From assembly GCA_045105515.1 (NCBI GenBank), contig JBGCDR010000178.1, positions 1 to 64,000 of the forward strand: a stretch of 64,000 nt of DNA, written 5' to 3'. Source of the DNA: Oligoflexales bacterium. Lineage in GTDB: Bacteria; Bdellovibrionota_B; Oligoflexia; Oligoflexales; Bog-1112. The translations under genes and the position numbers were made by a program. The notes below the pieces were generated by a model. The model worked only from the letters and a program-made list of their open reading frames with translations. It had not been told where the DNA came from and did not search any database. Below, piece by piece: positions 15,312 through 29,704 of the stretch; position 1 is the stretch's first letter, and each line of letters begins with the position of its first letter.

Positions 15312-16493
15312 ATTACTCTCTTTATGCTTTTTGTTATTGGCATGTTTGATGTCTTCTATGTATGATCTCGCTAACTCTTTTAAATCACTGCTGCTTTCTA
15401 TTGAACTTTGTAAGACTTCATAAAAAAGGCGCATAGCTTGGTATGGGTGGTCAAAGGAATGAAGTGTAAGCAATGCTAAATTATAACGAGAATTTGAATT
15501 TTGTGGGTCAATTTCCAGGACTTTTTCCAAAAGAATTTTCGCATCGTTATATTTGCCGGTTCGCATGTAAACTAGCCCAAGAGCAGTATGGGCTTCAATG
15601 TGATTTCCCTGCAATGATAAGGCTTTTTTAAGGGAAATTTCCGCACTTTCATAGTCATATTTTCGTAGTGACAGAATACCCTTGTTTACTAAAGCTGGGA
15701 CAAAAGTAGGAGAAATTGAAAGCGCTTTTGCATACCATGTTTCAGATTTTTCTAAGTTTCCAATTTTCTCGGTTATCACTCCAAGTAGATTATATAATGA
15801 GGGATCTTCTTTGCCTCTATCCAAGCCACGTAAAACGATAAATTCGGCGACTTCCAACTTGTCCTTGTTTAGGTAGGATGAGGCTAATGCAGCGTAACCT
15901 GGGGTGAATGTTTTATCCAAGGCGATCAGGTCGCTTAATATTTCATGACTTTTTCGAGTATCATCGATTAACTCATATGCAAGTGCTAGGGTGTATCTGT
16001 ATTGAAATAAAAAACTATTAGGGATAGTTTCCATTTTAGTCAAATTTTGTTTAATTTCTTCTAAGAGGTTAAAGGCGTGATCGGTATCAGTTTTTCGGAT
16101 ATATATCATAGCTAATTCTAGCAATCCTTGGAGATTGTCAGAATCTATCCTCAGAAGGTTGTGATAGGTATGTTCAGCTTTATCTAAATGTCCCAATGCT
16201 AAGAAAGATCGTGCTTTTTTCAATAGGTCTTCTGGATTTTGATTATCTCCTGATGAGATAAACTTCTGTTGGAGGATACCTCTTTGTTTTTGATTTGGGG
16301 GTGGTTTGAAAAAATCTCTCCAGCTCATTGATCTATTTTTGTTTTTTTGAGCCAAGGGATTAGTGGTACCGTTTTGTTCTGGTACAGGACCCATTTCTAC
16401 ATCAAGTTCATTATTTTCTTTTTCCGCTGATCCAAAGGGAGAACAGGCCAAAAGAGCAAAAGAAAAAGCCGATAATAATAATAAATGCTGCAT
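15309..16493 (-). CDS. TPR lipoprotein (GltE/AglT-like architecture)
   Basis: Lipobox LLAC, multiple clear TPRs (LYNLLGVI, ALVNKGIL, AHTALGLVY, SRYNLALL); TAATG coupling with upstream gene. Confidence 0.75.
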   Translation of the reverse strand: MQHLLLLSAFSFALLACSPFGSAEKENNELDVEMGPVPEQNGTTNPLAQKNKNRSMSWRDFFKPPPNQKQRGILQQKFISSGDNQNPEDLLKKARSFLALGHLDKAEHTYHNLLRIDSDNLQGLLELAMIYIRKTDTDHAFNLLEEIKQNLTKMETIPNSFLFQYRYTLALAYELIDDTRKSHEILSDLIALDKTFTPGYAALASSYLNKDKLEVAEFIVLRGLDRGKEDPSLYNLLGVITEKIGNLEKSETWYAKALSISPTFVPALVNKGILSLRKYDYESAEISLKKALSLQGNHIEAHTALGLVYMRTGKYNDAKILLEKVLEIDPQNSNSRYNLALLTLHSFDHPYQAMRLFYEVLQSSIESSSDLKELARSYIEDIKHANNKKHKESN

Positions 16494-19400
16494 TAAAGGC
16501 TCCATTGGTAAGGAAGATCAAGGTGCACTGCATGAGGAATTACCGACTCCTCAAATGGTTTTTTAGGTGCTATTGTTGTTCCTCTTATTCTCCACTTTGA
16601 TTTATTTACCCAGCTGTTGCTAGCATAATTTTGTTTACTACTAAGAAGTACGTTTTGGCTAAATAGTTTATTTGCAAAAAATCGAAGGTCTGAAGCTTCG
16701 TTAATTAGTGTTGCTGATGGTCTTTGGCCCGACTGTTCGAGTTTAAACAGTGAAGAAGATAATTCTATAGAGAATGACTCACTGATGTCACCTAGTTTGT
16801 AGCGCCCCATAGCGCTCCATTCCAGGTGATTACTGCGTATAGCTGCAAGATAAATATTTTTTAGTCTTTGATAGGACTTCTTCTTGATACTTAGAAGATA
16901 ATTGAATCTTTTTAAATTGTTCCACAGCTCTACTGTTTTGAACTCTTTAGAAATTTCATTTGCTAAAATTATATTGGCTTCACCATAAATGCTTGCCCAG
17001 GGTTCTGCTCCAATCTTTGATTTAGAGTTTTTACTGGATTGAATTACACCCTTAATAATGTTTATTCCCTTGCTGATGTCATAACCTGATAAGTAAGTTT
17101 TTGCGAGCAAGATCTTAGTTTCAAATTTTTCTAACAAATCTTTGCTGAGTTTTAGTCTCAATTTCGCTACCTTAATTGCTTTGCGATATTTTTTTGCTTT
17201 TAAAAAGTGCGAAACCGATCTCTTGTAACAGGACATTTTTTTTTGATGAGATTTTTCATACTTACCTAGTAATTCAGAGGCATTTCCAGCTAACTCAAAT
17301 AAGTCATCAGCCTCTGCAAGTTTTTCTGATCTAAGCAGACTAGTTGGGGTTTTTTTGTGCCTCGGAAAGCCAGAAGCTAGCTGCCAATAATAGTCTGATG
17401 CAAGCATAAATTTAAGCTGATATTCATAGCTGCGTGCAAGAAGATAAAGCATATCAGCTTTTTCTTTCTTTAAGCCCCAACTTAGATAGTTTAATCCTGC
17501 TTCTTGGGCCTTTAGCCAGTTTCCGGCAATAGCTAAATAATAGGCTCCGTCACGCATAATCCGAGATCTTTGCGGAAGGCCATGAAATTCGCTAGCAATA
17601 CTTACTAATAGCTGCCCAGCTTCAGTAATAGCACCATTATCATGGAGTCGAAGACCTTCATCGAGGCTAGCTTGTCCTAAAAGACTTAGAAACTCTCGCT
17701 GCATAGTAGAACCAAGAGCCTTCCAATCTTCAAGCCTAAGAAACTTGCGCAAAGCAACTATTAGGTTCCCTGTCGAGCGATGTTTTAAAGTCGCAAATAC
17801 TATTCCTCTTAGAGCTTTACTGCGTTGACCAATAGTAGAACCTAGATTTAGAACCTTGTTCCAAAAAGTGATTGCCAGTTGATAACGGCCCTGGTCCTTA
17901 TTCGCAGTAGCTGCTACTAACAGTAGATCAATAGCCTTGGAAGAGCTGGGGAAATTACTTACATAGCTGTTTACAGCTTTTTCCAGTTGAACTAGGTATC
18001 CAATTGTTTTCTCATCATTGGTTACTTGCATTCCAGATTCTAAAGCTTCTCTAAAACTTCTTCTCCACATTTTTTCATAAGAGATTGCAAGTTGGTAGGA
18101 GCTTATTTGAAGAAGTTCTTTGTCTAGTTTAATATCGCTAAGCAACTGGGAATATTGCATGGCAGCTTCTTCAAAGTTTTCCGAATAAAAATAGCAGTGA
18201 GCCTTTGATAGTCGCCACCTACTAGCATCTTTGTGATAGGGTGAAAAATCGAGAACAATGGAGAAAAAAGATGCTGCAGACATGTAGTGTTTGCTCAGAC
18301 CTGAGCTAACGCCTGTGTTGAAATGCCACTTAGCCAAAAGCAGAGCTGCTTGAAAAGCTAGTTTTTCCATTCTTTTCATGGTCGAAAGGTCCCCAGAATG
18401 TTTAGAGCGCCATAAACTCTTTTCCGGAAGAAGAAGTGCTAGCTGTTCTAGGTTTTTTATATGGAGTTTTGTTTGATTGTTAGTTTTATATGCAGCTGCC
18501 AGCATGGAAAGTTGGTGAGGTAGCTCAGAAGAGAGAGGAAACATTTTTAGTATGTGATTTAGAGTTGCTTCAAGTCTGAAAAATTGCCTCGAATTCAAAT
18601 AGCGCTCGGCAAGGTAGCTCCCAACTTTAGGAGCATGGTTTCCAAAAGATTTATAATTTAGGTATTTCTCAATTTTTTCAGTTTCACCGATTTCGAAGAG
18701 CACATCCCCAAGTAGCTCTACGATATCATTATTCAGCTTATTTTGCTCGTTTAACCTACCAAGGTGCCGATTTGGTGAAAGGATATTGATTCCTGTATTA
18801 ATCACTTTGTATAAGGAGCCTGATCGGTACGCAGCCCATGCTAAGCGGTACTCGAGCATAAGAATTTTTTGATTTTGTTCGGAAATTTTTAAGTGTCTTA
18901 AAAGAGCCAAAGCTTTTTCATAATTGATTACGGCTCTATGTGGGTTTTCTTGATAGAAATAGTGATCTCCAATAGCGGTATGAGCATATACATGATATAT
19001 AGATTGATGAGTCTTTGATGCAAGAATTTTCCACGATCTGAAAGATTTTTGCTTTTGACCTAATGTGCTATAAATATTTGCCTGTAAAAAAAGTGCATAG
19101 TCCCATTTTAAAAAAAGTGGAAAATTATCTCTTATTTCATTTAGCAAATTGATAGCCTCTTCTTGGTACCCTGTTAAAGTACTATTGTTTTCCTCTTGAT
19201 TAATATTTTCAGAAAGCAAATAGAGAACTTGGGCTAGATTAAGAAGTACATAGGGCCTATTTTCAGCATTCTCTGAAGTGTGTAGTTGGTCCCGGTAGTC
19301 CGAGGCGGACTCTTTTAGTTTATCGATGATTTCTTGGTTTATATCAAATTTTTGTTTGAAGTGATCTTGGGATAGATTGTTCCATGAAGACTCATACTTT

Positions 19401-19573
19401 TTTTGTCCATCTCTGATAAGTTCTTTTTGTCTCTTCTCAAAAGTTTGCCAAAACGAGTGATAAACCTCCATCGCAGTTGGGTCAGCTAGGTCGGACTTGG
19501 ATTTGCTTAACGCTCTCCCAGGTATAGCTAAAAACAAAAAGGAAATAAGTATAAATATTTGATATTTTACCAT
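16493..19573 (-). CDS. Large exported TPR protein (GltD/AgmU-like architecture)
   Basis: 1026 aa, signal peptide, TPR-like repeats (YRLAWAAY, MLYLLARSY, WSAMGRYKLG). Confidence 0.65.
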   Translation of the reverse strand: MVKYQIFILISFLFLAIPGRALSKSKSDLADPTAMEVYHSFWQTFEKRQKELIRDGQKKYESSWNNLSQDHFKQKFDINQEIIDKLKESASDYRDQLHTSENAENRPYVLLNLAQVLYLLSENINQEENNSTLTGYQEEAINLLNEIRDNFPLFLKWDYALFLQANIYSTLGQKQKSFRSWKILASKTHQSIYHVYAHTAIGDHYFYQENPHRAVINYEKALALLRHLKISEQNQKILMLEYRLAWAAYRSGSLYKVINTGINILSPNRHLGRLNEQNKLNNDIVELLGDVLFEIGETEKIEKYLNYKSFGNHAPKVGSYLAERYLNSRQFFRLEATLNHILKMFPLSSELPHQLSMLAAAYKTNNQTKLHIKNLEQLALLLPEKSLWRSKHSGDLSTMKRMEKLAFQAALLLAKWHFNTGVSSGLSKHYMSAASFFSIVLDFSPYHKDASRWRLSKAHCYFYSENFEEAAMQYSQLLSDIKLDKELLQISSYQLAISYEKMWRRSFREALESGMQVTNDEKTIGYLVQLEKAVNSYVSNFPSSSKAIDLLLVAATANKDQGRYQLAITFWNKVLNLGSTIGQRSKALRGIVFATLKHRSTGNLIVALRKFLRLEDWKALGSTMQREFLSLLGQASLDEGLRLHDNGAITEAGQLLVSIASEFHGLPQRSRIMRDGAYYLAIAGNWLKAQEAGLNYLSWGLKKEKADMLYLLARSYEYQLKFMLASDYYWQLASGFPRHKKTPTSLLRSEKLAEADDLFELAGNASELLGKYEKSHQKKMSCYKRSVSHFLKAKKYRKAIKVAKLRLKLSKDLLEKFETKILLAKTYLSGYDISKGINIIKGVIQSSKNSKSKIGAEPWASIYGEANIILANEISKEFKTVELWNNLKRFNYLLSIKKKSYQRLKNIYLAAIRSNHLEWSAMGRYKLGDISESFSIELSSSLFKLEQSGQRPSATLINEASDLRFFANKLFSQNVLLSSKQNYASNSWVNKSKWRIRGTTIAPKKPFEESVIPHAVHLDLPYQWSL

Positions 19574-21855
19574 GTTTCTAAGATTCCATGCTTAATGTCA
19601 AAGAGTGAATTTTCAAATTCTTTTTTTTCAGCTTCAAAGCTTGCAATTGCTTCGTTCTCAGATGTTTTGATAATTTCATATTGATTCCACTTGATGTCTG
19701 CAATCCACTTCTTATATTTTGCTTTTAATTGCCTGATTTGAAAAAGATAGTGACTTGCAATGAGGGAAATACTGTTCGCAGCTATACTTTCAAAACGGTT
19801 TGAGCTTCTTTTAATATATGATCTTTGAGAATTTAGGTCGGATTGTAAGTTGCTTAGACTCGCTATGGCCCCATCGATGTTTTCTTTGATTCGTTGTTCG
19901 ACATACCTTAAATTTTCTGCAAGATTCTTGGAAAGACTCTTCCAAATCTGCCAAATCGCGGTTAGTTTTTCTGCGCGAATACGGCCGCTTGCAGTTTTGA
20001 AATTTGAACGGAATCGCAGGTAAAGATTGCTTTCAGCCTTTAGAGAATCACTATATCTAGTGAAAAAGACTTTTTGTGGCATATTTGCAAAGACATTTGC
20101 TTGATTTACGAAGCGCTTCTCCCGAAGAACATTTATTATGTTTGTAACTTGGGTATTGAGTTGCGAACTTAAACTGTCTAAGTACTCCAAAGACTCTGCT
20201 AATGCTTGCTTTTTTTCAGTTTCTTCTAGGTTTAGCATATGGTTGCTTGCTGTCATCATGGCATTTATTTTTTGCATTCTTTTCCAGAGCTTACCAACTT
20301 TTGCATTTTTCTGTAGAAATACACTTTCTTTCCTCAAAGGGCCTGTGTCTCGATGGTATCTGTATTTTTCAGTCATCATTTTTTCACGGCGGTTCCAAAG
20401 AGCTAATATCTGATTGTCTTCTGATCTAGAAAGTTTATCTTTATAGATAGATTTTTCTGCAGAAACTAGCATGTGACCGATCTTTAAGATATCATTGCCG
20501 AAGGCTAGTAACTGTAGGTAGTGGTGGTGTAGGTCGGGATTATAGCTGGTTATTTCTGCGTTACTAATCGACTTTAAACTATACTGGAGATTCCCCTCGA
20601 GAGAGTTTGCTTGCTCATTCAAGTTGACTAAATTATTCTCTATTGTTTTAAGTTTTTTGCTTAGTGGTGGGATACTTACAAGTCTGTTAATTGAAGCTTC
20701 AAGCTCTTTAAATGAACCATAAGAATCAAAATATCTGCTGCGACTAAATGACCCAAGTTCGGTAACCAAATTCTTAATAGTTTCTAAACGAACATTCAGA
20801 TTTGATTTAGCTTGATCGAAATGACCAGCTTGCATATCAAAAAAAGGCATAAGTCTTCGAACCATATTCGTGCGCCTACTATCTAAATTTGCACCAAGAT
20901 ATAGATTAGCTTGTGTTTTTGCCTCTTCCCAATTTCTTACAGATGCATAGAGAAAACATAGCTCGAAAACACTATCGAAATAAACAGGTGATTCTGAAGA
21001 GATAGATTTGTAATTTTGTTCTGCTAGCATAGGTTTGTTTAGAACGAAATTCAGTCGACCTAAAAATAGTTTGTAGAAAGGTAGCAATTCACTATTTTCA
21101 GAAATTTGATCCATTGCTAAGGTTAAAATATGATGCGCTCGTTCATACTTATTGAGTTGTATTGCGATTATTGCCTGAAAAATTTTTGTGCGAGCAAACA
21201 TTTTCATGTCGCTACTAAATGCACTTGCATTTGCAAGCCATTGACTAGCAACTTTGTATAGACCTCCTTGGTTAGCAATCTTAGCGATGAGGTACATCAT
21301 TTGGTATCGCCTAGGTTGGGGGAAATCAATCGCCGAAAATCCAGAAATGAATGAATAAAGATCATTTTTCTTAATCGTACTGTATTTTAAATCGAAATAT
21401 AGTTGGTTTAGTATTTCCTCTAGATCAGAGAAATTTTGATCTTGTGCAGTAAGGAATGATGCGGTGTATTTTTTTGCTGACTGAAAAGAATTTTGATACT
21501 GACGAGTTTGTGAGTAAATAGAAAAAAGATTTTTTTGAATATGTAGGTAAGTTGGGGCAGGAGGTACTTGAATTAAGTTTAAGTATTTTGAGTACCAATA
21601 GAGAGAAGCATACGGAATTTTCTGATCATAGAAAAGATCTGCTTTCTCCAAAAAAGCCGTAGCTTCTTCATTGTTTATGTGAAAGCCTTTGCTTCTTCTT
21701 ATTGTTTTGATCGCATTGAATTGCATATCTAGATTTTGCAGCATTTGAGACGCATTTAGAATTAGGTCTTCTGGAGATTCTGCTTTGAAAGCAAAACTAT
21801 TCACAGCTGGTATAAACACCAGCATAAGAAGATAGCAGTTAAAGTAAAGACTCAT
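19567..21855 (-). CDS. Exported TPR + coiled-coil protein
   Basis: 762 aa, signal peptide, N-terminal TPR-like region (LFLGRLNF...YKSISSESPVYFDSVFE), long C-terminal coiled coil. Confidence 0.6.
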   Translation of the reverse strand: MSLYFNCYLLMLVFIPAVNSFAFKAESPEDLILNASQMLQNLDMQFNAIKTIRRSKGFHINNEEATAFLEKADLFYDQKIPYASLYWYSKYLNLIQVPPAPTYLHIQKNLFSIYSQTRQYQNSFQSAKKYTASFLTAQDQNFSDLEEILNQLYFDLKYSTIKKNDLYSFISGFSAIDFPQPRRYQMMYLIAKIANQGGLYKVASQWLANASAFSSDMKMFARTKIFQAIIAIQLNKYERAHHILTLAMDQISENSELLPFYKLFLGRLNFVLNKPMLAEQNYKSISSESPVYFDSVFELCFLYASVRNWEEAKTQANLYLGANLDSRRTNMVRRLMPFFDMQAGHFDQAKSNLNVRLETIKNLVTELGSFSRSRYFDSYGSFKELEASINRLVSIPPLSKKLKTIENNLVNLNEQANSLEGNLQYSLKSISNAEITSYNPDLHHHYLQLLAFGNDILKIGHMLVSAEKSIYKDKLSRSEDNQILALWNRREKMMTEKYRYHRDTGPLRKESVFLQKNAKVGKLWKRMQKINAMMTASNHMLNLEETEKKQALAESLEYLDSLSSQLNTQVTNIINVLREKRFVNQANVFANMPQKVFFTRYSDSLKAESNLYLRFRSNFKTASGRIRAEKLTAIWQIWKSLSKNLAENLRYVEQRIKENIDGAIASLSNLQSDLNSQRSYIKRSSNRFESIAANSISLIASHYLFQIRQLKAKYKKWIADIKWNQYEIIKTSENEAIASFEAEKKEFENSLFDIKHGILETW

Positions 21856-22604
21856 GAATTTAAATTGCCCTCAAACATTTTCGCTTTTACAGGTTCATTA
21901 ATATTTTTGGGAGGGTAAATAGTAAATACCCATTTCTTTTTAAATGAACCTACCGGAATGGATACCTGAAAACTCTGATTGATCATTCTGTATAAGCTAT
22001 CATTTAGCGGTATGTCCGACGGGTTTAGAAGAACAATACGTGAAACAATATCTATGCGATGATTACCAGGACTAAGTGAGCCATAATAGACTTGAAGAGA
22101 ATCTTTTGGTATCCATAGACTAGAAAAGTTGTCCGAATGTATTGGAGTACCATCGATTTTAATTTCAATATGCTGAATGTTCGCAATTTCGCTTTTTGCA
22201 AGCGTAACCTCAAGGACAATGAGATTATTTATATTCATTTCATGCATGATCTCTTGTTGCTTTTGTTTGACTTTTGCAGTGAGTATTTTTAAATTTGAAT
22301 TTAGTTTGCTAATCTCCTTGTCTAGTTGATTTAAGTCATTCATTGGGCTTAACCCACCTGATATTCGTGTTCTCCATTTTTTGGAGAAGGTAGAATTATT
22401 ATTATTTGATTTTTTTGATTTTCCTGTCGTTTTATCGGTATAAAGTGCCTGTGATCCACGTTCTTTCTCTAAGAGTTTAGAATCTAACTGGTCGCTGATC
22501 GAACTATCTGCTAAAGCCTTCGTTGTAAGGATTGAAATAGAAAGGCTTAAGCTAATAAAGTATTTGCTGTTAAATTTACTTATTTTTTGCATAGCGTTTT
22601 TCAC
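21852..22604 (-). CDS. Exported protein, coiled coil + beta-sandwich-like domain
   Basis: Signal-like segment, heptad stretch, then IEIKIDG...VYYGSLSPGNHRIDI. Confidence 0.55.
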   Translation of the reverse strand: MKNAMQKISKFNSKYFISLSLSISILTTKALADSSISDQLDSKLLEKERGSQALYTDKTTGKSKKSNNNNSTFSKKWRTRISGGLSPMNDLNQLDKEISKLNSNLKILTAKVKQKQQEIMHEMNINNLIVLEVTLAKSEIANIQHIEIKIDGTPIHSDNFSSLWIPKDSLQVYYGSLSPGNHRIDIVSRIVLLNPSDIPLNDSLYRMINQSFQVSIPVGSFKKKWVFTIYPPKNINEPVKAKMFEGNLNS

Positions 22605-23880
22605 TTATGGAAGCTAGGTGAATTTGAAACTTTTGAGCGAAGCTCTTTGGCAAAAATAGTTCAAAGTACTTTGGTAATTTATGATGTCTATATCTTGTAA
22701 AGCTACTTGCTCTCAAGCCTCGGTTAAACTCAGCCAAAATATTTTTTTTTAGTGGAGTTTTTTTTAGAATTTGAGCAATTGAAAGAGGTTTTTTCAGAGT
22801 TAAAGAAGTTAAGCTAAGGGATTTTTGCTTAGTATCTACTTTGTTTTCATTCAGAAGACGATTATATGTGTTTACAGCAGCGCGGAACTCTGCATAAAAG
22901 TTTTTGCTGGCATAGCGGAAAGATTTGGAATGATAACGATCAATGATTCTGCCTAGATCCCGAGAACCAACCTGTTTGATAGCCCTTTTCATCCCTCCTT
23001 GCCCATGATTATATGCAGTAATCGCAAGTGGCCAAGCTTTCAGAACTTGGTGGTTCCTAGCCATTAACTTCGCTGCTCCACGAGTAGCTTTAAAAGGAGA
23101 GTTTCGTTCGTCAACGAGGCGGTTGATTCGCATATATTTCTTAGCTGTTTGGGGCATGAATTGCCATATACCTGATGCTCCGACCCGAGATCTTGCTTTT
23201 AAGTTGAACATGGATTCAACGAAAGCAAGACGAGTGATGATTGGGGGAATTCCCTCATCTTTGAAGGTTTTCTCCATGAATGGTAGATATTTCTGAGCTC
23301 TGTTCGCTGCTACGATAAACTCATTCGCTAATCCGGCTTGACTGCGAATATCTACCTCACCTCGATATAGGAGGTAAAGCCCACTTTTGGTACGATTATA
23401 AACGCTAAAAATTCTGCGCTCTATTGCTCCAAATTTTAGGGCAGTTTTTCCTAGTCGACGAAAGCGTTTAATTGCTAATCGATATCGATTCAAGTATGAA
23501 CGGGTGATGCGATCTCGTAATCTTTTCGCAGGAAGGTTTTTCCTAGAGTTTTGATTGGCCCATAATTTGAAGTCAATTATGTCGATAATATGACCTGGGC
23601 GTTTCGTATCATGTATTACTGTTGTGTGAGTAGGATAATTGTAGAAAATTTTTTCCCAAAACTGGATCTGTTTTTCAACTACCGATGGAGTTGGAAATAG
23701 CTTAGGATCAAGTTCAATAGCAGTAAGGCACTTTCCTTTCGTCAAAGCTATGATAGCCATGACAATGGCACACAGAAAAGCTTTATTCTTTATAAGATGA
23801 GGCTTAGTTTTGTTCAAAGCTACTGACATTTGGTGATCTTTGATTGTTGGCGATAGTTTGATGCTCTTATATTTTAACAA
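22576..23880 (-). CDS. Lytic transglycosylase (SLT domain, MltD-like)
   Basis: LAFVESMF catalytic Glu, GASGIWQFMP, AITAYNHG motifs. Confidence 0.9.
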   Translation of the reverse strand: MLKYKSIKLSPTIKDHQMSVALNKTKPHLIKNKAFLCAIVMAIIALTKGKCLTAIELDPKLFPTPSVVEKQIQFWEKIFYNYPTHTTVIHDTKRPGHIIDIIDFKLWANQNSRKNLPAKRLRDRITRSYLNRYRLAIKRFRRLGKTALKFGAIERRIFSVYNRTKSGLYLLYRGEVDIRSQAGLANEFIVAANRAQKYLPFMEKTFKDEGIPPIITRLAFVESMFNLKARSRVGASGIWQFMPQTAKKYMRINRLVDERNSPFKATRGAAKLMARNHQVLKAWPLAITAYNHGQGGMKRAIKQVGSRDLGRIIDRYHSKSFRYASKNFYAEFRAAVNTYNRLLNENKVDTKQKSLSLTSLTLKKPLSIAQILKKTPLKKNILAEFNRGLRASSFTRYRHHKLPKYFELFLPKSFAQKFQIHLASISEKRYAKNK

Positions 23881-26678: not shown

Positions 26679-26871
26679 AATACCTCCATTTATATTCGAA
26701 AATATCTTAAGAGCAAAATATCTTCTCTATCTTAGCATTGTCTGCGATGAAGTAAACTGGGTACCTATATACTTCCAGAAAGGTGCTAAAATTCGGAAAG
26801 TTGGCAAAATGAAGCGGCGTTTCACTTGATACTGTGGTCATTGCTTGGAATTTGATGGCGCAGAAGATTCT

Positions 26872-27615
26872 TTAGTTATCCTTTTCACCTAGGAAAGAGC
26901 CAAGTTTAGAGCGAATAATTTTGGGGTTTTCTCCAGCGAGTAAAGCATCTACACCTACCTTAATGATTTCTAAGTTTTGCACCTCTGCCTTTGAGTTGAA
27001 TTCAAGCTTTGATGTAAGCGGTATGAAATACATATTAGAAAGCAAGGATCCATATAAGGTTGTCACAAGTGCTACTGCCAATCCAGGGCCAATTTTAGAG
27101 GGGTCACTTAAATTTGCCATAATTACAATCAATCCAATAACCGTCCCGATCATACCAAAAGCTGGGCATGATTCACCCATATAATTGAAAATATCATTAC
27201 CGATTTTATGCCTTTTCTTCAAATTTAGAATTTCTAGGTCAAGCAAGGATCTAATGAGTTCAGGGTCGTAGCCATCAACCATGCACCTGACTGCTTTGGC
27301 AAAATAGTGATTTTTAACAGGGAATTTTTCCAATGCGAGAATTGATTCTTTGCGAGCTATCTGTGCACACTCAATGATTTCTTCAATCAATTCTGCGTCA
27401 TCTTGTAGGTTATTATGAATAGCCTTTAAGCCTGCACTGAGGCCTTTGATAAAAGTAGGTAAGCTAAACCGAGCCATTGTAGCAAAAAAAGCACCCCCTA
27501 GAACGATAATGATACTGGTTAAATCCCAATATAAAAGGATTCCCCCAGTAAACTGCATGATTCCTACAAGCAGAAGGGTTCCAACAACTAATCCGACAAG
27601 ACTTGCTATATCCAC
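26872..27615 (-). CDS. motA: MotA/PomA-family stator subunit
   Basis: ARKESILALE, PAFGMIGTVIGL, IGPGLAVALVTTLYG, GENP motifs; 4 TM pattern. Confidence 0.92.
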   Translation of the reverse strand: MDIASLVGLVVGTLLLVGIMQFTGGILLYWDLTSIIIVLGGAFFATMARFSLPTFIKGLSAGLKAIHNNLQDDAELIEEIIECAQIARKESILALEKFPVKNHYFAKAVRCMVDGYDPELIRSLLDLEILNLKKRHKIGNDIFNYMGESCPAFGMIGTVIGLIVIMANLSDPSKIGPGLAVALVTTLYGSLLSNMYFIPLTSKLEFNSKAEVQNLEIIKVGVDALLAGENPKIIRSKLGSFLGEKDN

Positions 27616-27633
27616 TTAAGTCCATACCTAGTA

Positions 27634-27972
27634 TTAAGGTTTACACTCTTTAAATGAAACGATCTTTCTGGGCATTTTCGTAGAGTCAATCTCTATATCT
27701 CGATAAATAAAAGTTTTTCCTAAAACTTCGTTGATTCGTGACTTTTCAATTTCAACGAAACATTTTTGTCTATTGATATTATAATTCTTTATACACATAC
27801 TCACAAAACCATCACTAGCCATATCCATATTTTTTTTGTCTACCTCAAGATGCCACTCACACTTGCTTGTATTCTGGCAATCACAGCTTTGTATAAATAT
27901 GAATAGCAACATTAGAGCCAAGATACCTTGAGAACTACTCGTAAACGATTTTAAGATCGACTCTATTTCCAA
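27634..27972 (-). CDS. Small Cys-rich putative lipoprotein inside the stator operon
   Basis: Hydrophobic stretch ending IQSC, six Cys; overlaps motB2 end and lies 18 nt from motA. Confidence 0.6.
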   Translation of the reverse strand: MEIESILKSFTSSSQGILALMLLFIFIQSCDCQNTSKCEWHLEVDKKNMDMASDGFVSMCIKNYNINRQKCFVEIEKSRINEVLGKTFIYRDIEIDSTKMPRKIVSFKECKP

Positions 27973-28711
27973 GGTTAAGATTTTCTCCTAAATTTATACT
28001 GCTATCATTATAAGGTAATTCATAGCCATATGGAATCAATCTGCGAATTGGAACTTCGTAATTCCTGCTTAAATATCTCAACATGAAGGTAGCTCTAAGT
28101 GAAGCTAGGGCTAAGCCTTCAGGAGAACTCCCTTTTTTTTCTGCGTATGCTTGAATAATGATATTTTTATCGAGGCTTGCTAAGTATATGGCTAAGGGCT
28201 GCAAATTTTTTATCTGGGCACGTTTTAACCGATAAGAATTTTCTTCATAGAGCATACTGGCTCCAATACTTACGACGATATTCTTTCCTTCTCGATATAC
28301 TGAAACAGTTGGTTTTTCTTTTCTAAAATAGCGTTTGATTTTTTGGGCAGGCTCTGGCTCTATTAACTTTCTTACCTTTTCTAATTCTTCATCAATCACG
28401 TTCACATTGTTACGGTTGCGATTGAAGCGTTTGATTAGTTGTTCTCGTCTATAATCGAGCTTCCAGTTTTTGAAGATATTAATCCCTTTATTAGTAGGCC
28501 CAACATCAGGGTCATCAATTTGATCAGGAATTTCGATGAAGGCTTCGCGAATAGATGAAACGACACCTCTTATTTCCTTTGTTTCTCCTTCGGATTTAAG
28601 TCCATAAAGGACCACAAATGTAGCAAAAAGAAGGGTCATGAGGTCTGCATAGCTGATAATCCATAAGCCACCTTCTTGTTCGGGTTCTTTTTCTGCTTTT
28701 GGAGTTTCTAT
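27935..28711 (-). CDS. motB: MotB-family stator subunit 2 (probable ATA start)
   Basis: In-frame extension upstream of ATG 28639 reads ETPKAEKEPEQEGGLWIISYADL; no NTG codon between the upstream stop and this motif; ATA at 28711 preceded by AGGA; degenerate OmpA-like C-terminus ending NRVDL. Confidence 0.8.
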   Translation of the reverse strand: METPKAEKEPEQEGGLWIISYADLMTLLFATFVVLYGLKSEGETKEIRGVVSSIREAFIEIPDQIDDPDVGPTNKGINIFKNWKLDYRREQLIKRFNRNRNNVNVIDEELEKVRKLIEPEPAQKIKRYFRKEKPTVSVYREGKNIVVSIGASMLYEENSYRLKRAQIKNLQPLAIYLASLDKNIIIQAYAEKKGSSPEGLALASLRATFMLRYLSRNYEVPIRRLIPYGYELPYNDSSINLGENLNLGNRVDLKIVYE

Positions 28712-28726
28712 AGTTAGATTTCCTAA

Positions 28727-29512
28727 TTAAAGGTTGAAATCTACCTTGATCTCAACACGATCATCGATTGCATTAGACTCACGGTTGCCGCTGTTTGTTA
28801 CCGGAATCTCACTTCCAAATCCTGCTGCAGTTACCTGTGATCTTGAGTAGCGATATTTAGAAACAATATAGCTTGCTAAAGAAGACGCTCTTTTTGCAGA
28901 TAGTTCCCAGTCAGTTATATCTTTTTGTTCTCTATTTCTTGATGCGTGCCCCAATAGACTGATGGGCTTACCAAGTTCCATGACAGTTGAAAGCATTGGT
29001 TCTATCATTTTAAGAGCACTGCGATTTAGTCGACTGGACCCTTTTTTATAAAATGCTGAGCCTAAAAGAGTAACGGTTAGTTCGTTGTTCGATGCTGAAA
29101 AAGAAAATGCTTCTATGTTTTTAGTGCTTGAAGATTTGGGAATGATCTTTTTGCTTTGCATCGTTAGTGTATTGATTATTCGCTCAAAATCTTTATTCAC
29201 CATCCGTAAAGGGTATTCGGTGTCATCTTTGAGTACTACAACTCTAGGAGCTACTGCGCTTCCCTTTTTCTTGCGAAACCGGCTTTTCCCTAGGATGATT
29301 TCCCCACGCTCTACTTTTATTGGTATATCATCTGGAACATCTTTAAATGCTTCTCTTATTGAAGATTTAGCCCCTTTGAATGCCTTAGTCTCACCATCAG
29401 GTTTAAGTCCGTAAAGAACAACAAAGGTTGCAAATAGTAAAGTCATTAAGTCAGCATAACCTACAATCCAGGCTGGAACGGAACTTTCAGCCTTTTCGTC
29501 ATCATCTTCCAT
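28727..29512 (-). CDS. motB: MotB-family stator subunit 1
   Basis: WIVGYADLMTLLFATFVVLY TM with conserved Asp; OmpA-like GHAS...WELSAKRA...AAGFG...DRVEI. Confidence 0.9.
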   Translation of the reverse strand: MEDDDEKAESSVPAWIVGYADLMTLLFATFVVLYGLKPDGETKAFKGAKSSIREAFKDVPDDIPIKVERGEIILGKSRFRKKKGSAVAPRVVVLKDDTEYPLRMVNKDFERIINTLTMQSKKIIPKSSSTKNIEAFSFSASNNELTVTLLGSAFYKKGSSRLNRSALKMIEPMLSTVMELGKPISLLGHASRNREQKDITDWELSAKRASSLASYIVSKYRYSRSQVTAAGFGSEIPVTNSGNRESNAIDDRVEIKVDFNL

Positions 29513-29704
29513 AAACTTTTTTTCATATGTTAAGTTGTTTATGACTATTTAATTATAGTAGAATTATGCATTGAATCTTGGGAAATATTTTCCTATCAAA
29601 GCATTTTAGAAAGCTTCGTTGCTGATTTGATATTGCTTAAAATGAAGCGTTTCTCTAAGATCCTTTTTCAGATCTCAATAAATTTAAGAATTAAAAGGGT
29701 AGAT

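Follow-up and report, generated by a model that had tools for sequence, protein, structure and literature searches.

Flagellar-motor research has yet to settle how stators are recruited, anchored and un-plugged, and the accessory proteins known to take part vary by lineage. In Vibrio, MotX and MotY form the T-ring and are partners of the Na+-driven polar stator PomA/PomB. The AglRQS motors of Myxococcus and Bdellovibrio combine one A-type with two B-type subunits, AglQ and AglS being TolR-like and not known to have an OmpA-like domain. AglRS has been placed among the non-flagellar homologues (accessible part of PMC12505986). Two MotB proteins beside a single MotA have been described in Aquifex aeolicus, whose motA/motB1/motB2 operon encodes a Na+-type stator with MotB1 and MotB2 97% identical over the transmembrane (TM) segment and N-terminus and 23% identical over the periplasmic part (PMC4525482, cited here and below from the accessible part of that paper). 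MotK and MotE are stator accessories of the Fla2 flagellum of Cereibacter sphaeroides (accessible part of PMC10954123). Here we compare with these systems a four-gene stator operon, motB1-motB2-lip-motA, found in a 64,000-nucleotide stretch of DNA (the window, on contig C178, JBGCDR010000178.1) from an Oligoflexales bacterium. With moderate confidence, we favour reading it as an auxiliary flagellar stator of the PomAB type that probably uses Na+ and has a lipoprotein accessory peculiar to its lineage, the lip product (Lip). The genes are as follows.

28727-29512, minus strand: motB1, 261 amino acids (aa), ATG start
27935-28711, minus strand: motB2, 258 aa if the start is the conserved ATA (28709-28711), the frame being open up to 28726
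27634-27972, minus strand: lip, 112-aa precursor from a TTG, or 92 aa from an ATG at 27912
26872-27615, minus strand: motA, PomA-like, 247 aa, GTG start

All four were found where the initial annotation of the window had placed them, tightly packed on one strand and transcribed in the order given. The open frame of motB2 directly abuts the motB1 TAA in the same frame, with its proposed start 15 nucleotides (nt) past that stop; the TTG start of lip lies inside the end of motB2 (38-nt overlap; the alternative ATG is 22 nt past that end), and 18 nt separate the lip stop from the motA GTG. An assembly error at the motB1/motB2 junction was rejected, because Logan contigs from three runs, all of one study and possibly the source of this same DNA, cover 26800-29600 with zero differences. 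The statement that no flagellar genes lie in the 64-kb window also held, as none of its 50 other open reading frames (ORFs) of 90 aa or more matched a family of flagellar or chemotaxis proteins in a Pfam scan.

By its sequence, the operon's MotA is a PomA-type flagellar stator subunit. It matches MotA_ExbB (PF01618) at 90.9 bits, against a cut-off of 22.9, and aligns without a gap to residues 1-244 of V. alginolyticus PomA (E 1.3e-54), which does not fit the Myxococcus-like non-canonical motor put forward as a possibility in the initial annotation. The rotor residues and Na+ threonines of PomA are kept: MotA retains R88, K89, E96, P151, T158, T185, T186 and P199 (PomA numbering), the first three being FliG-contact charges, and the ARK...E motif is present. 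A role in rotor contact is stated for R90 and E98 of E. coli (PMC4525482), and T158, T185 and T186 of PomA are essential for Na+ conduction in Vibrio (accessible part of PMC6677748); by analogy, the window stator is probably of the Na+ type. RKEK occupies positions 88, 89, 96 and 97 in 31/31 stator A proteins of the order examined. The best NCBIfam row, NF006527 (PomA), scores 238.5 bits, under its cut-off of 341, and by the yardstick of the NCBIfam PomA/MotA/MotP equivalogs the protein would count as a diverged member. In a tree of these 31 proteins and one outgroup, 13 rows, the window included, make up a 'TTT' group that is no single resolved clade, and 18 rows form an 'AAT' clade (branch 3.64, support 100), which contains the MotA encoded on contig C82 of the same genome. 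The C82 protein lacks two of the three Na+ threonines, and the genome would thus hold two kinds of stator, the C82 motAB probably H+-type and the window unit probably Na+-type. The sole match of a genome-contig search with MotA alone was a sister metagenome-assembled genome (L085). Upstream of motA, an out-of-frame ATG-GAC-TTA (M-D-L, compare the first residues of PomA) is found at 27616-27625, 10 nt before the GTG, and its ATG opens an overlapping frame of 53 codons.

The assembly (6.29 Mb, 461 contigs, 91% complete) contains 8 MotB_plug and 10 MotA_ExbB matches, with canonical motA-motB pairs on contigs C82, C74, C300 and C96. It also contains 8 flagellin_N matches, FliM and FliL, consistent with the flagellar role that the initial annotation had regarded as possible from the rotor-contact charges. 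A fliG and a separate canonical motAB, which it had suggested looking for, both have candidates in the genome: the pair on C82, and a FliG-like gene (C181:52843-53877, 345 aa, FliG_C 108 bits) outside any fliF-fliG-fliH cluster. Most relatives have a FliG of ~140 bits plus a paralogue like that of C181; here, the main fliG is probably missing from the assembly. Assignment to Zorya (ZorAB), whose ZorA is long-tailed, was rejected, the 247-aa MotA having no PADLOC match and the ZorB matches being weak (18.8-37.7 bits).

In the motB1 product, an acidic N-terminus leads into a TM helix that carries Asp21, and a plug region and an OmpA-like domain follow. MotB_plug (PF13677, cut-off 24) is matched at 37.3 bits by MotB1 and 46.8 bits by MotB2, and OmpA (PF00691, cut-off 27.2) at 38.5 and 27.7 bits, respectively; the best NCBIfam rows for both proteins are MotD. 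The modelled fold of the MotB2 OmpA-like domain (pLDDT 82-93) matches the periplasmic domains of MotS, PomB and MotB (E 2e-9, TMt up to 0.81), so that plug, OmpA-like domain and a fold like that of PomB-C and MotS add to the likeness with Vibrio PomA/PomB. An additional periplasmic protein goes with the present stator family too. AglRQS shares with the operon one A-type and two B-type subunits and differs from it in that the operon's MotA is PomA-like and both its B subunits are full MotBs. The Aquifex operon likewise holds a single motA and a pair of motB genes with near-identical TM and N-terminal parts and divergent periplasmic parts, but its order is A-B1-B2 rather than B1-B2-Lip-A, no lipoprotein is mentioned in the accessible part of PMC4525482, and the motB duplication of the present operon is independent and lineage-specific.

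The essential Asp lies in YADLMTLL in both MotBs (in MotB2, this requires a non-canonical start), and both contain YADLMTLLFATFVVLYGLK and SSIREAF, as the initial annotation had reported. Their TM segments are identical in 19/19 residues, at an overall identity of ~28-29%. The identical segment had been taken to point to a tandem duplication, but its residues are invariant in 20/20 aligned family members and its two copies differ at 12/57 nt, all synonymously, which argues for constraint rather than recent duplication or gene conversion; the duplication is old. In the tree, the paired Bs of family f15, from the A-Lip-B-B loci, cluster with each other (100/98) and all family-f1 Bs form another clade (95/99), so that tandem motB duplication occurred at least twice. 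In the genus of the window (g1), the whole B1-B2 unit has been duplicated again: a paralogous pair, motB1'-motB2', is present at C311:482-2048 (L003) in the window's genome (G000) and on contig C425 (L042) in the sister species G012. The two paralogues are 54% and 60% identical to the window pair and come without lip or motA, the C311 pair being followed by non-coding DNA with a transposase-like remnant; their dS between G000 and G012 (0.33-0.50) is far below that of the main operon, which is saturated, and hints at a later transfer or a different history. All four operon genes are under purifying selection. Compared with G012, dN/dS is 0.043 for motB1 and 0.093 for lip; motB2 (89% identical, dN 0.072) and motA (dN 0.050) have saturated dS, which makes dN/dS not computable; and the paralogues give 0.20 (motB1') and 0.10 (motB2'). 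The motB2 frame has zero internal stops. A search of metagenome contigs with MotB2 gave 160 pattern matches, 0 of them confirmed.

The departure of both OmpA-like domains from GHTD was confirmed, and with it an alteration of the peptidoglycan-binding motifs. GHTD is replaced by GHAS in MotB1 and AYAE in MotB2, and NRRVEI by DDRVEI and GNRVDL, with the Arg of LSxxRA kept (LSAKRA and LASLRA); in OmpA-like domains, the GHTD Asp and the LSxxRA Arg are the residues that contact peptidoglycan. Judged from the aligned relatives, the Asp is lost in this genus alone: the four Bs of G000 and the four of G012 all lack it, together with NRR, and keep the LSxxRA Arg (B1-type variants GHAS and GHTS, B2-type variants AYAE, AYAK, AYVE and AYVET), and GHTD, LSxLRA and NRRVEI are retained by relatives outside the genus, the tandem Bs of G017 and G013 among them. 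The stem branches of the g1 B1 and B2 are long (1.18 and 1.57). Despite the loss of these motifs, the MotB genes are not decaying.

A further peculiarity concerns the beginning of motB2. In the stretch from the motB1 TAA to the essential motB2 Asp, ATG, GTG and TTG are all absent, both in the window and in the C311 paralogue. In 4/4 motB2 copies (two species, two loci), an ATA with an upstream AGGA or AGGTGA, Shine-Dalgarno-like, stands where B1 has its ATG ahead of the acidic stretch, and this conserved ATA is the likely motB2 start. Over the 14 N-terminal codons that follow it, pN/pS is 0.10-0.21 in 5/6 pairwise comparisons (0.50 in the sixth, between the two paralogous copies), and such low values upstream of the later ATG/TTG/TTA codon indicate that the N-terminal stretch is translated. 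Five codons before the Asp, G012 has an ATG or TTG and G000 a TTA. In G017 (L043, G017:C10, 6718-8318), both tandem motBs have an ATC at the equivalent position, preceded by GGAG-type sites. A near-cognate precedent is the AUU start of infC in E. coli, which keeps expression low; motB2 resembles such low-expression starts in its conserved AUH codon and Shine-Dalgarno-like site where relatives have ATG, and differs in that the codon is ATA and lies 15 nt past the stop of a paralogue, with coupling by re-initiation as an alternative. Read-through of the stop codon into a MotB1-MotB2 fusion was rejected, since the stop of motB1' lies in a different frame from motB2' in the paralogous pair and, by topology, the second OmpA-like domain of a fusion would face the cytoplasm. 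The missing canonical start matters for annotation, because gene callers give MotB2 relatives of 243 or 234 aa and the 234-aa form is trimmed to a protein without the essential Asp. A 9-bp stem-loop is also present at the extreme end of motB1 (28733-28756, minus strand), ahead of the stop and the proposed motB2 ribosome-binding site, and could affect coupled translation.

The component without a described counterpart is Lip, which has a hydrophobic leader, the lipobox IQSC, an Asp at +2 and four further invariant Cys. Leader and [LIVTM]x[GAS]C are found in 13/13 aligned stator-linked Lips, with the Cys and the next Asp invariant, and by the lipobox criterion Lip is predicted to be a bacterial lipoprotein. 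Over this alignment the invariant residues are C10, D11, C18-E19-W20, C40, N43, Q49, C51, P81 and C90; the TTG start is conserved in G012. Under the +2 rule of E. coli, Asp at this position means retention in the inner membrane and avoidance of Lol, a rule that may not be that of Oligoflexia. No Pfam or NCBIfam family matched Lip. Its AlphaFold2 model is a small beta-barrel (pLDDT 87.8), for which Foldseek returned nothing at E <= 1e-3; the best VIA-align Z in the PDB was 5.2, the matches being OB-like barrels that include PriB/SSB and AB5-toxin B subunits, and we take these to reflect a common small-barrel arrangement. The best ESM Atlas score was 0.85, under the 0.9 line. Nothing in these searches therefore ties Lip to MotX or MotY or, among the other known accessories, to FliL, FlgT or PflA/B, given its lack of a Pfam family or a convincing solved fold (a MotY_N search of the genome was blank, and its control silent too). 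The operon also differs from the Vibrio stator in that Lip is an ~80-residue lipoprotein encoded inside the stator operon, and in its two B genes, reversed gene order and lost peptidoglycan-contact Asp. Conceptually, the role proposed for Lip would be closest to those of FliL and MotK/MotE, lineage-specific proteins of the periplasm whose target is MotB and on which rotation depends, but no sequence or fold relation to them was found, Lip being a new lipoprotein family of one order; FliL is moreover encoded apart from the operon, on C108.

A profile search of 1.84 billion representative proteins found 74 members of the Lip family. Lip is present in 80/131 genomes of the phylum, namely the window genome and 79/94 others of its order, and in 0/36 genomes outside the order. 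Of 98 genomic matches, 46 lie less than 500 bp from a motB match, in 37 genomes, and gene order was resolved at 37 Lip-linked loci.

B-B-Lip-A: 3 loci (G000, G012, G017)
B-Lip-A-B: 1 locus (G013)
B-Lip-A: 1 locus (G016)
A-Lip-B-B: 4 loci (G053, G054, G055, G072)
Divergent A<>B-Lip: 5 loci (G019, G053, G054, G055, G072)
Lip-B<>A: 2 loci (G049, G057)
Collinear A-B-Lip: 21 loci (genera g40 and g44)

The dedicated lipoprotein partner of the initial annotation thus recurs beside motA/motB at 46 loci in many gene orders, and the synteny it had proposed to look for, B-B-Lip-A, at three. Two MotBs with one MotA are co-retained at 8 loci. Lip accompanies 13/13 loci with a TTT-type MotA and 11/18 with an AAT-type MotA, and among 100 flanking ORFs of 13 loci no other neighbour family recurs. 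The conserved module is MotA with one or two MotB and Lip, and Lip represents a new stator-linked lipoprotein family, spread over both stator clades of the order. That the linkage has survived so many rearrangements is the main argument for Lip working with the stator. A full-text literature search (supplements aside) found no description of a small Cys-rich Oligoflexia lipoprotein encoded with motAB. The stator itself and the two-B layout are of kinds already known; as far as the searches show, the literature describes neither the stator-linked Lip family nor its presence across both stator clades of one order, nor the conserved ATA start.

If the operon is such an auxiliary stator, both MotBs would insert into one and the same MotA pentamer, and sharing it would explain why the TM and plug segments have stayed identical and the periplasmic parts have diverged to ~29% identity, as in Aquifex MotB1/MotB2. 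Mixed or alternative B dimers (B1-B1, B2-B2, B1-B2) seem more likely than an obligate heterodimer, because the Aquifex Bs each worked alone as chimeras. MotB2 would be made from the weak ATA just past the motB1 stop, at a level either low or coupled to that of MotB1. Lip would most likely be located next to the stator, on the periplasmic side of the inner membrane, given the few linker residues between its lipid Cys and its fold and the invariant Asp at +2, and may help the stator to assemble, to be anchored or to be un-plugged. Since both MotBs of this genus have lost the peptidoglycan-contact Asp, their anchoring may lean more on protein partners and less on direct contact with peptidoglycan.

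Several observations weigh against this reading. The operon is remote from any flagellar gene, and of 13 related loci only 2 have chemotaxis or flagellin genes nearby: G017, with flagellin and cheA within a few kb of the stator locus, and G016, with an adjacent cheR. The ~140-bit FliG was not found in this 91%-complete assembly, the best FliG_C match (108 bits) standing alone. Every NCBIfam stator match of the operon falls under the curated cut-off, the Na+ assignment comes from three residues by analogy with Vibrio, and the peptidoglycan-contact Asp is gone from both MotBs. In model bacteria, initiation at ATA is very weak, and an ATT or ATC two or three codons ahead of the Asp motif is an alternative start for motB2. 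Contact between Lip and the stator is a proposal drawn from gene linkage, and 52/98 Lip matches are unlinked to motB. The unlinked Lips, one of them in the window's own genome (C156:19222-19548), form their own clade, sister to the Lips behind canonical motA-motB in genus g44. At the loci examined (G000 C156:17473-19548, L081:1469-2292, L083, L084, protein P0036) they adjoin or are fused to a domain of ~170-200 aa that has no Pfam family, and they occur in two genomes lacking a FliG_C match, G010 (93% complete) and G043 (86%). This branch and these genomes indicate that the Lip fold is not exclusively a stator part, and the unlinked Lips may be a second, non-stator use of it.

A gene resembling succinylglutamate desuccinylase/aspartoacylase, a name read from the sequence outside any library scan, often stands beside the unlinked Lip. 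Among the 74 family representatives there is no Lip-MotB Rosetta-stone fusion, the two long ones, P0036 and P0058, carrying other sequence; the Lip profile hits P0058 (2108 aa, 19 PKD-like repeats) in 10 stretches, probably as an artefact of the repeats or Cys pattern of that protein.

Among the other explanations, the one that survives best, though we think it clearly the less probable, makes the two-B arrangement obligatory: a heterodimeric stator, MotA5:MotB1:MotB2, in which two different periplasmic domains and Lip would form an asymmetric anchor. The co-retention of two MotBs with one MotA at 8 loci, after duplications that were independent at least twice, speaks for such a heterodimer, as do the Asp and plug kept in both Bs and a motB2 start 15 nt past the motB1 stop, suggestive of coupled translation. 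The identity of the TM segments of both Bs within a genome also fits, but would be expected no less if the Bs paired with MotA individually, and a chimera of Aquifex MotB1 or MotB2 alone with MotA drove rotation in E. coli (PMC4525482). A single B is found at 29/37 resolved Lip-linked loci, so that neither Lip nor MotA needs two Bs, and a weak ATA start suits a minor subunit better than a 1:1 partner.

A stronger version of the proposed role of Lip, which we hold to be unlikely, would make it a true third subunit, an inner-membrane barrel that binds the MotB plug or linker or the periplasmic loops of MotA and replaces part of the anchoring to, or activation by, peptidoglycan, joined in this genus by an asymmetric B1:B2 dimer that does not bind peptidoglycan. 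If true, flagellar stators would here have their first example built of three or four distinct subunits.

We give slightly less credit still to a non-flagellar ion-driven motor that would, like TolQR-Pal or AglRQS, energise another envelope process (gliding, secretion or maintenance) through Lip. It would account for the orphan site in 64 kb free of flagellar genes, the unusual and variable gene order and the lost peptidoglycan-contact Asp, and SLT transglycosylase genes lie near the operon in G000 and G072. Three further MotA/MotB-like pairs of the genome lack the rotor-contact charges, and non-flagellar stator-like motors therefore probably exist in it. The operon's own MotA, however, shows no gap in its alignment to PomA and, in common with 31/31 relatives examined, retains R88, K89 and E96, the operon's Bs have the full MotB architecture rather than that of TolR/ExbD, the same Lip family stands behind canonical motA-motB at 21 loci, and flagellin and cheA lie within a few kb in G017 and cheR is adjacent in G016.

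Decay of a duplicate, with motB2 a pseudogene lacking a start, relaxed OmpA motifs and a functionless arrangement, could be read into the absence of ATG, GTG or TTG before the Asp in either motB2 copy of the genome, the AYAE and GNRVDL in place of canonical motifs, the very long g1 B1 and B2 stems (1.18 and 1.57) and the C311 pair with its transposase remnant and neither lip nor motA, but it is very improbable in view of the 89% identity of motB2 to its G012 orthologue (dN 0.072, dS saturated), the dN/dS of 0.10 of motB2', the purifying selection on the stretch ahead of the Asp, the zero internal stops, the confidently modelled OmpA-like fold and the same start-codon oddity in another genus (G017, ATC).

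Read as an auxiliary PomAB-type stator, the operon offers, in a Lip genetically tied to both stator clades of one order, a concrete candidate for an accessory protein. That MotB has doubled repeatedly and independently next to a single MotA amounts to a natural experiment on what the periplasmic half of the protein does, and a genus with both MotBs devoid of the Asp yet under purifying selection is a second.

Upstream of the operon, one further feature was recognized.

29549-29595, minus strand: candidate promoter or operator, TAGGAA-N-TTTCCCAAGAT (also given as TAGGAA-N-TTTCCCAA(G/T)AT), followed by invariant TATAATTAA

The invariant TATAATTAA lies ~40 nt ahead of the motB1 ATG, and the motif is kept ahead of 4/4 motB1-motB2 units, at two paralogous loci in each of two species, despite saturated synonymous sites, conservation being what makes it a candidate. 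A consensus promoter scan gave nothing above chance or shuffles, and terminator-like matches in the region did not exceed chance. Reading the motif as sigma-28-like was dropped, as under the pattern applied this suits one copy only and flagellin genes were not found to be preceded by the motif. A similar string, TTAGGAAAATTTTACCGAACAT, lies upstream of one flagellin gene (C65:25660). Farther along the window, 15312-23880 on the minus strand encodes a TPR protein, three large proteins (1026, 762 and 250 aa) without a Pfam family and an SLT lytic transglycosylase, and in G072 (L046), too, the stator module has SLT genes at its flanks.

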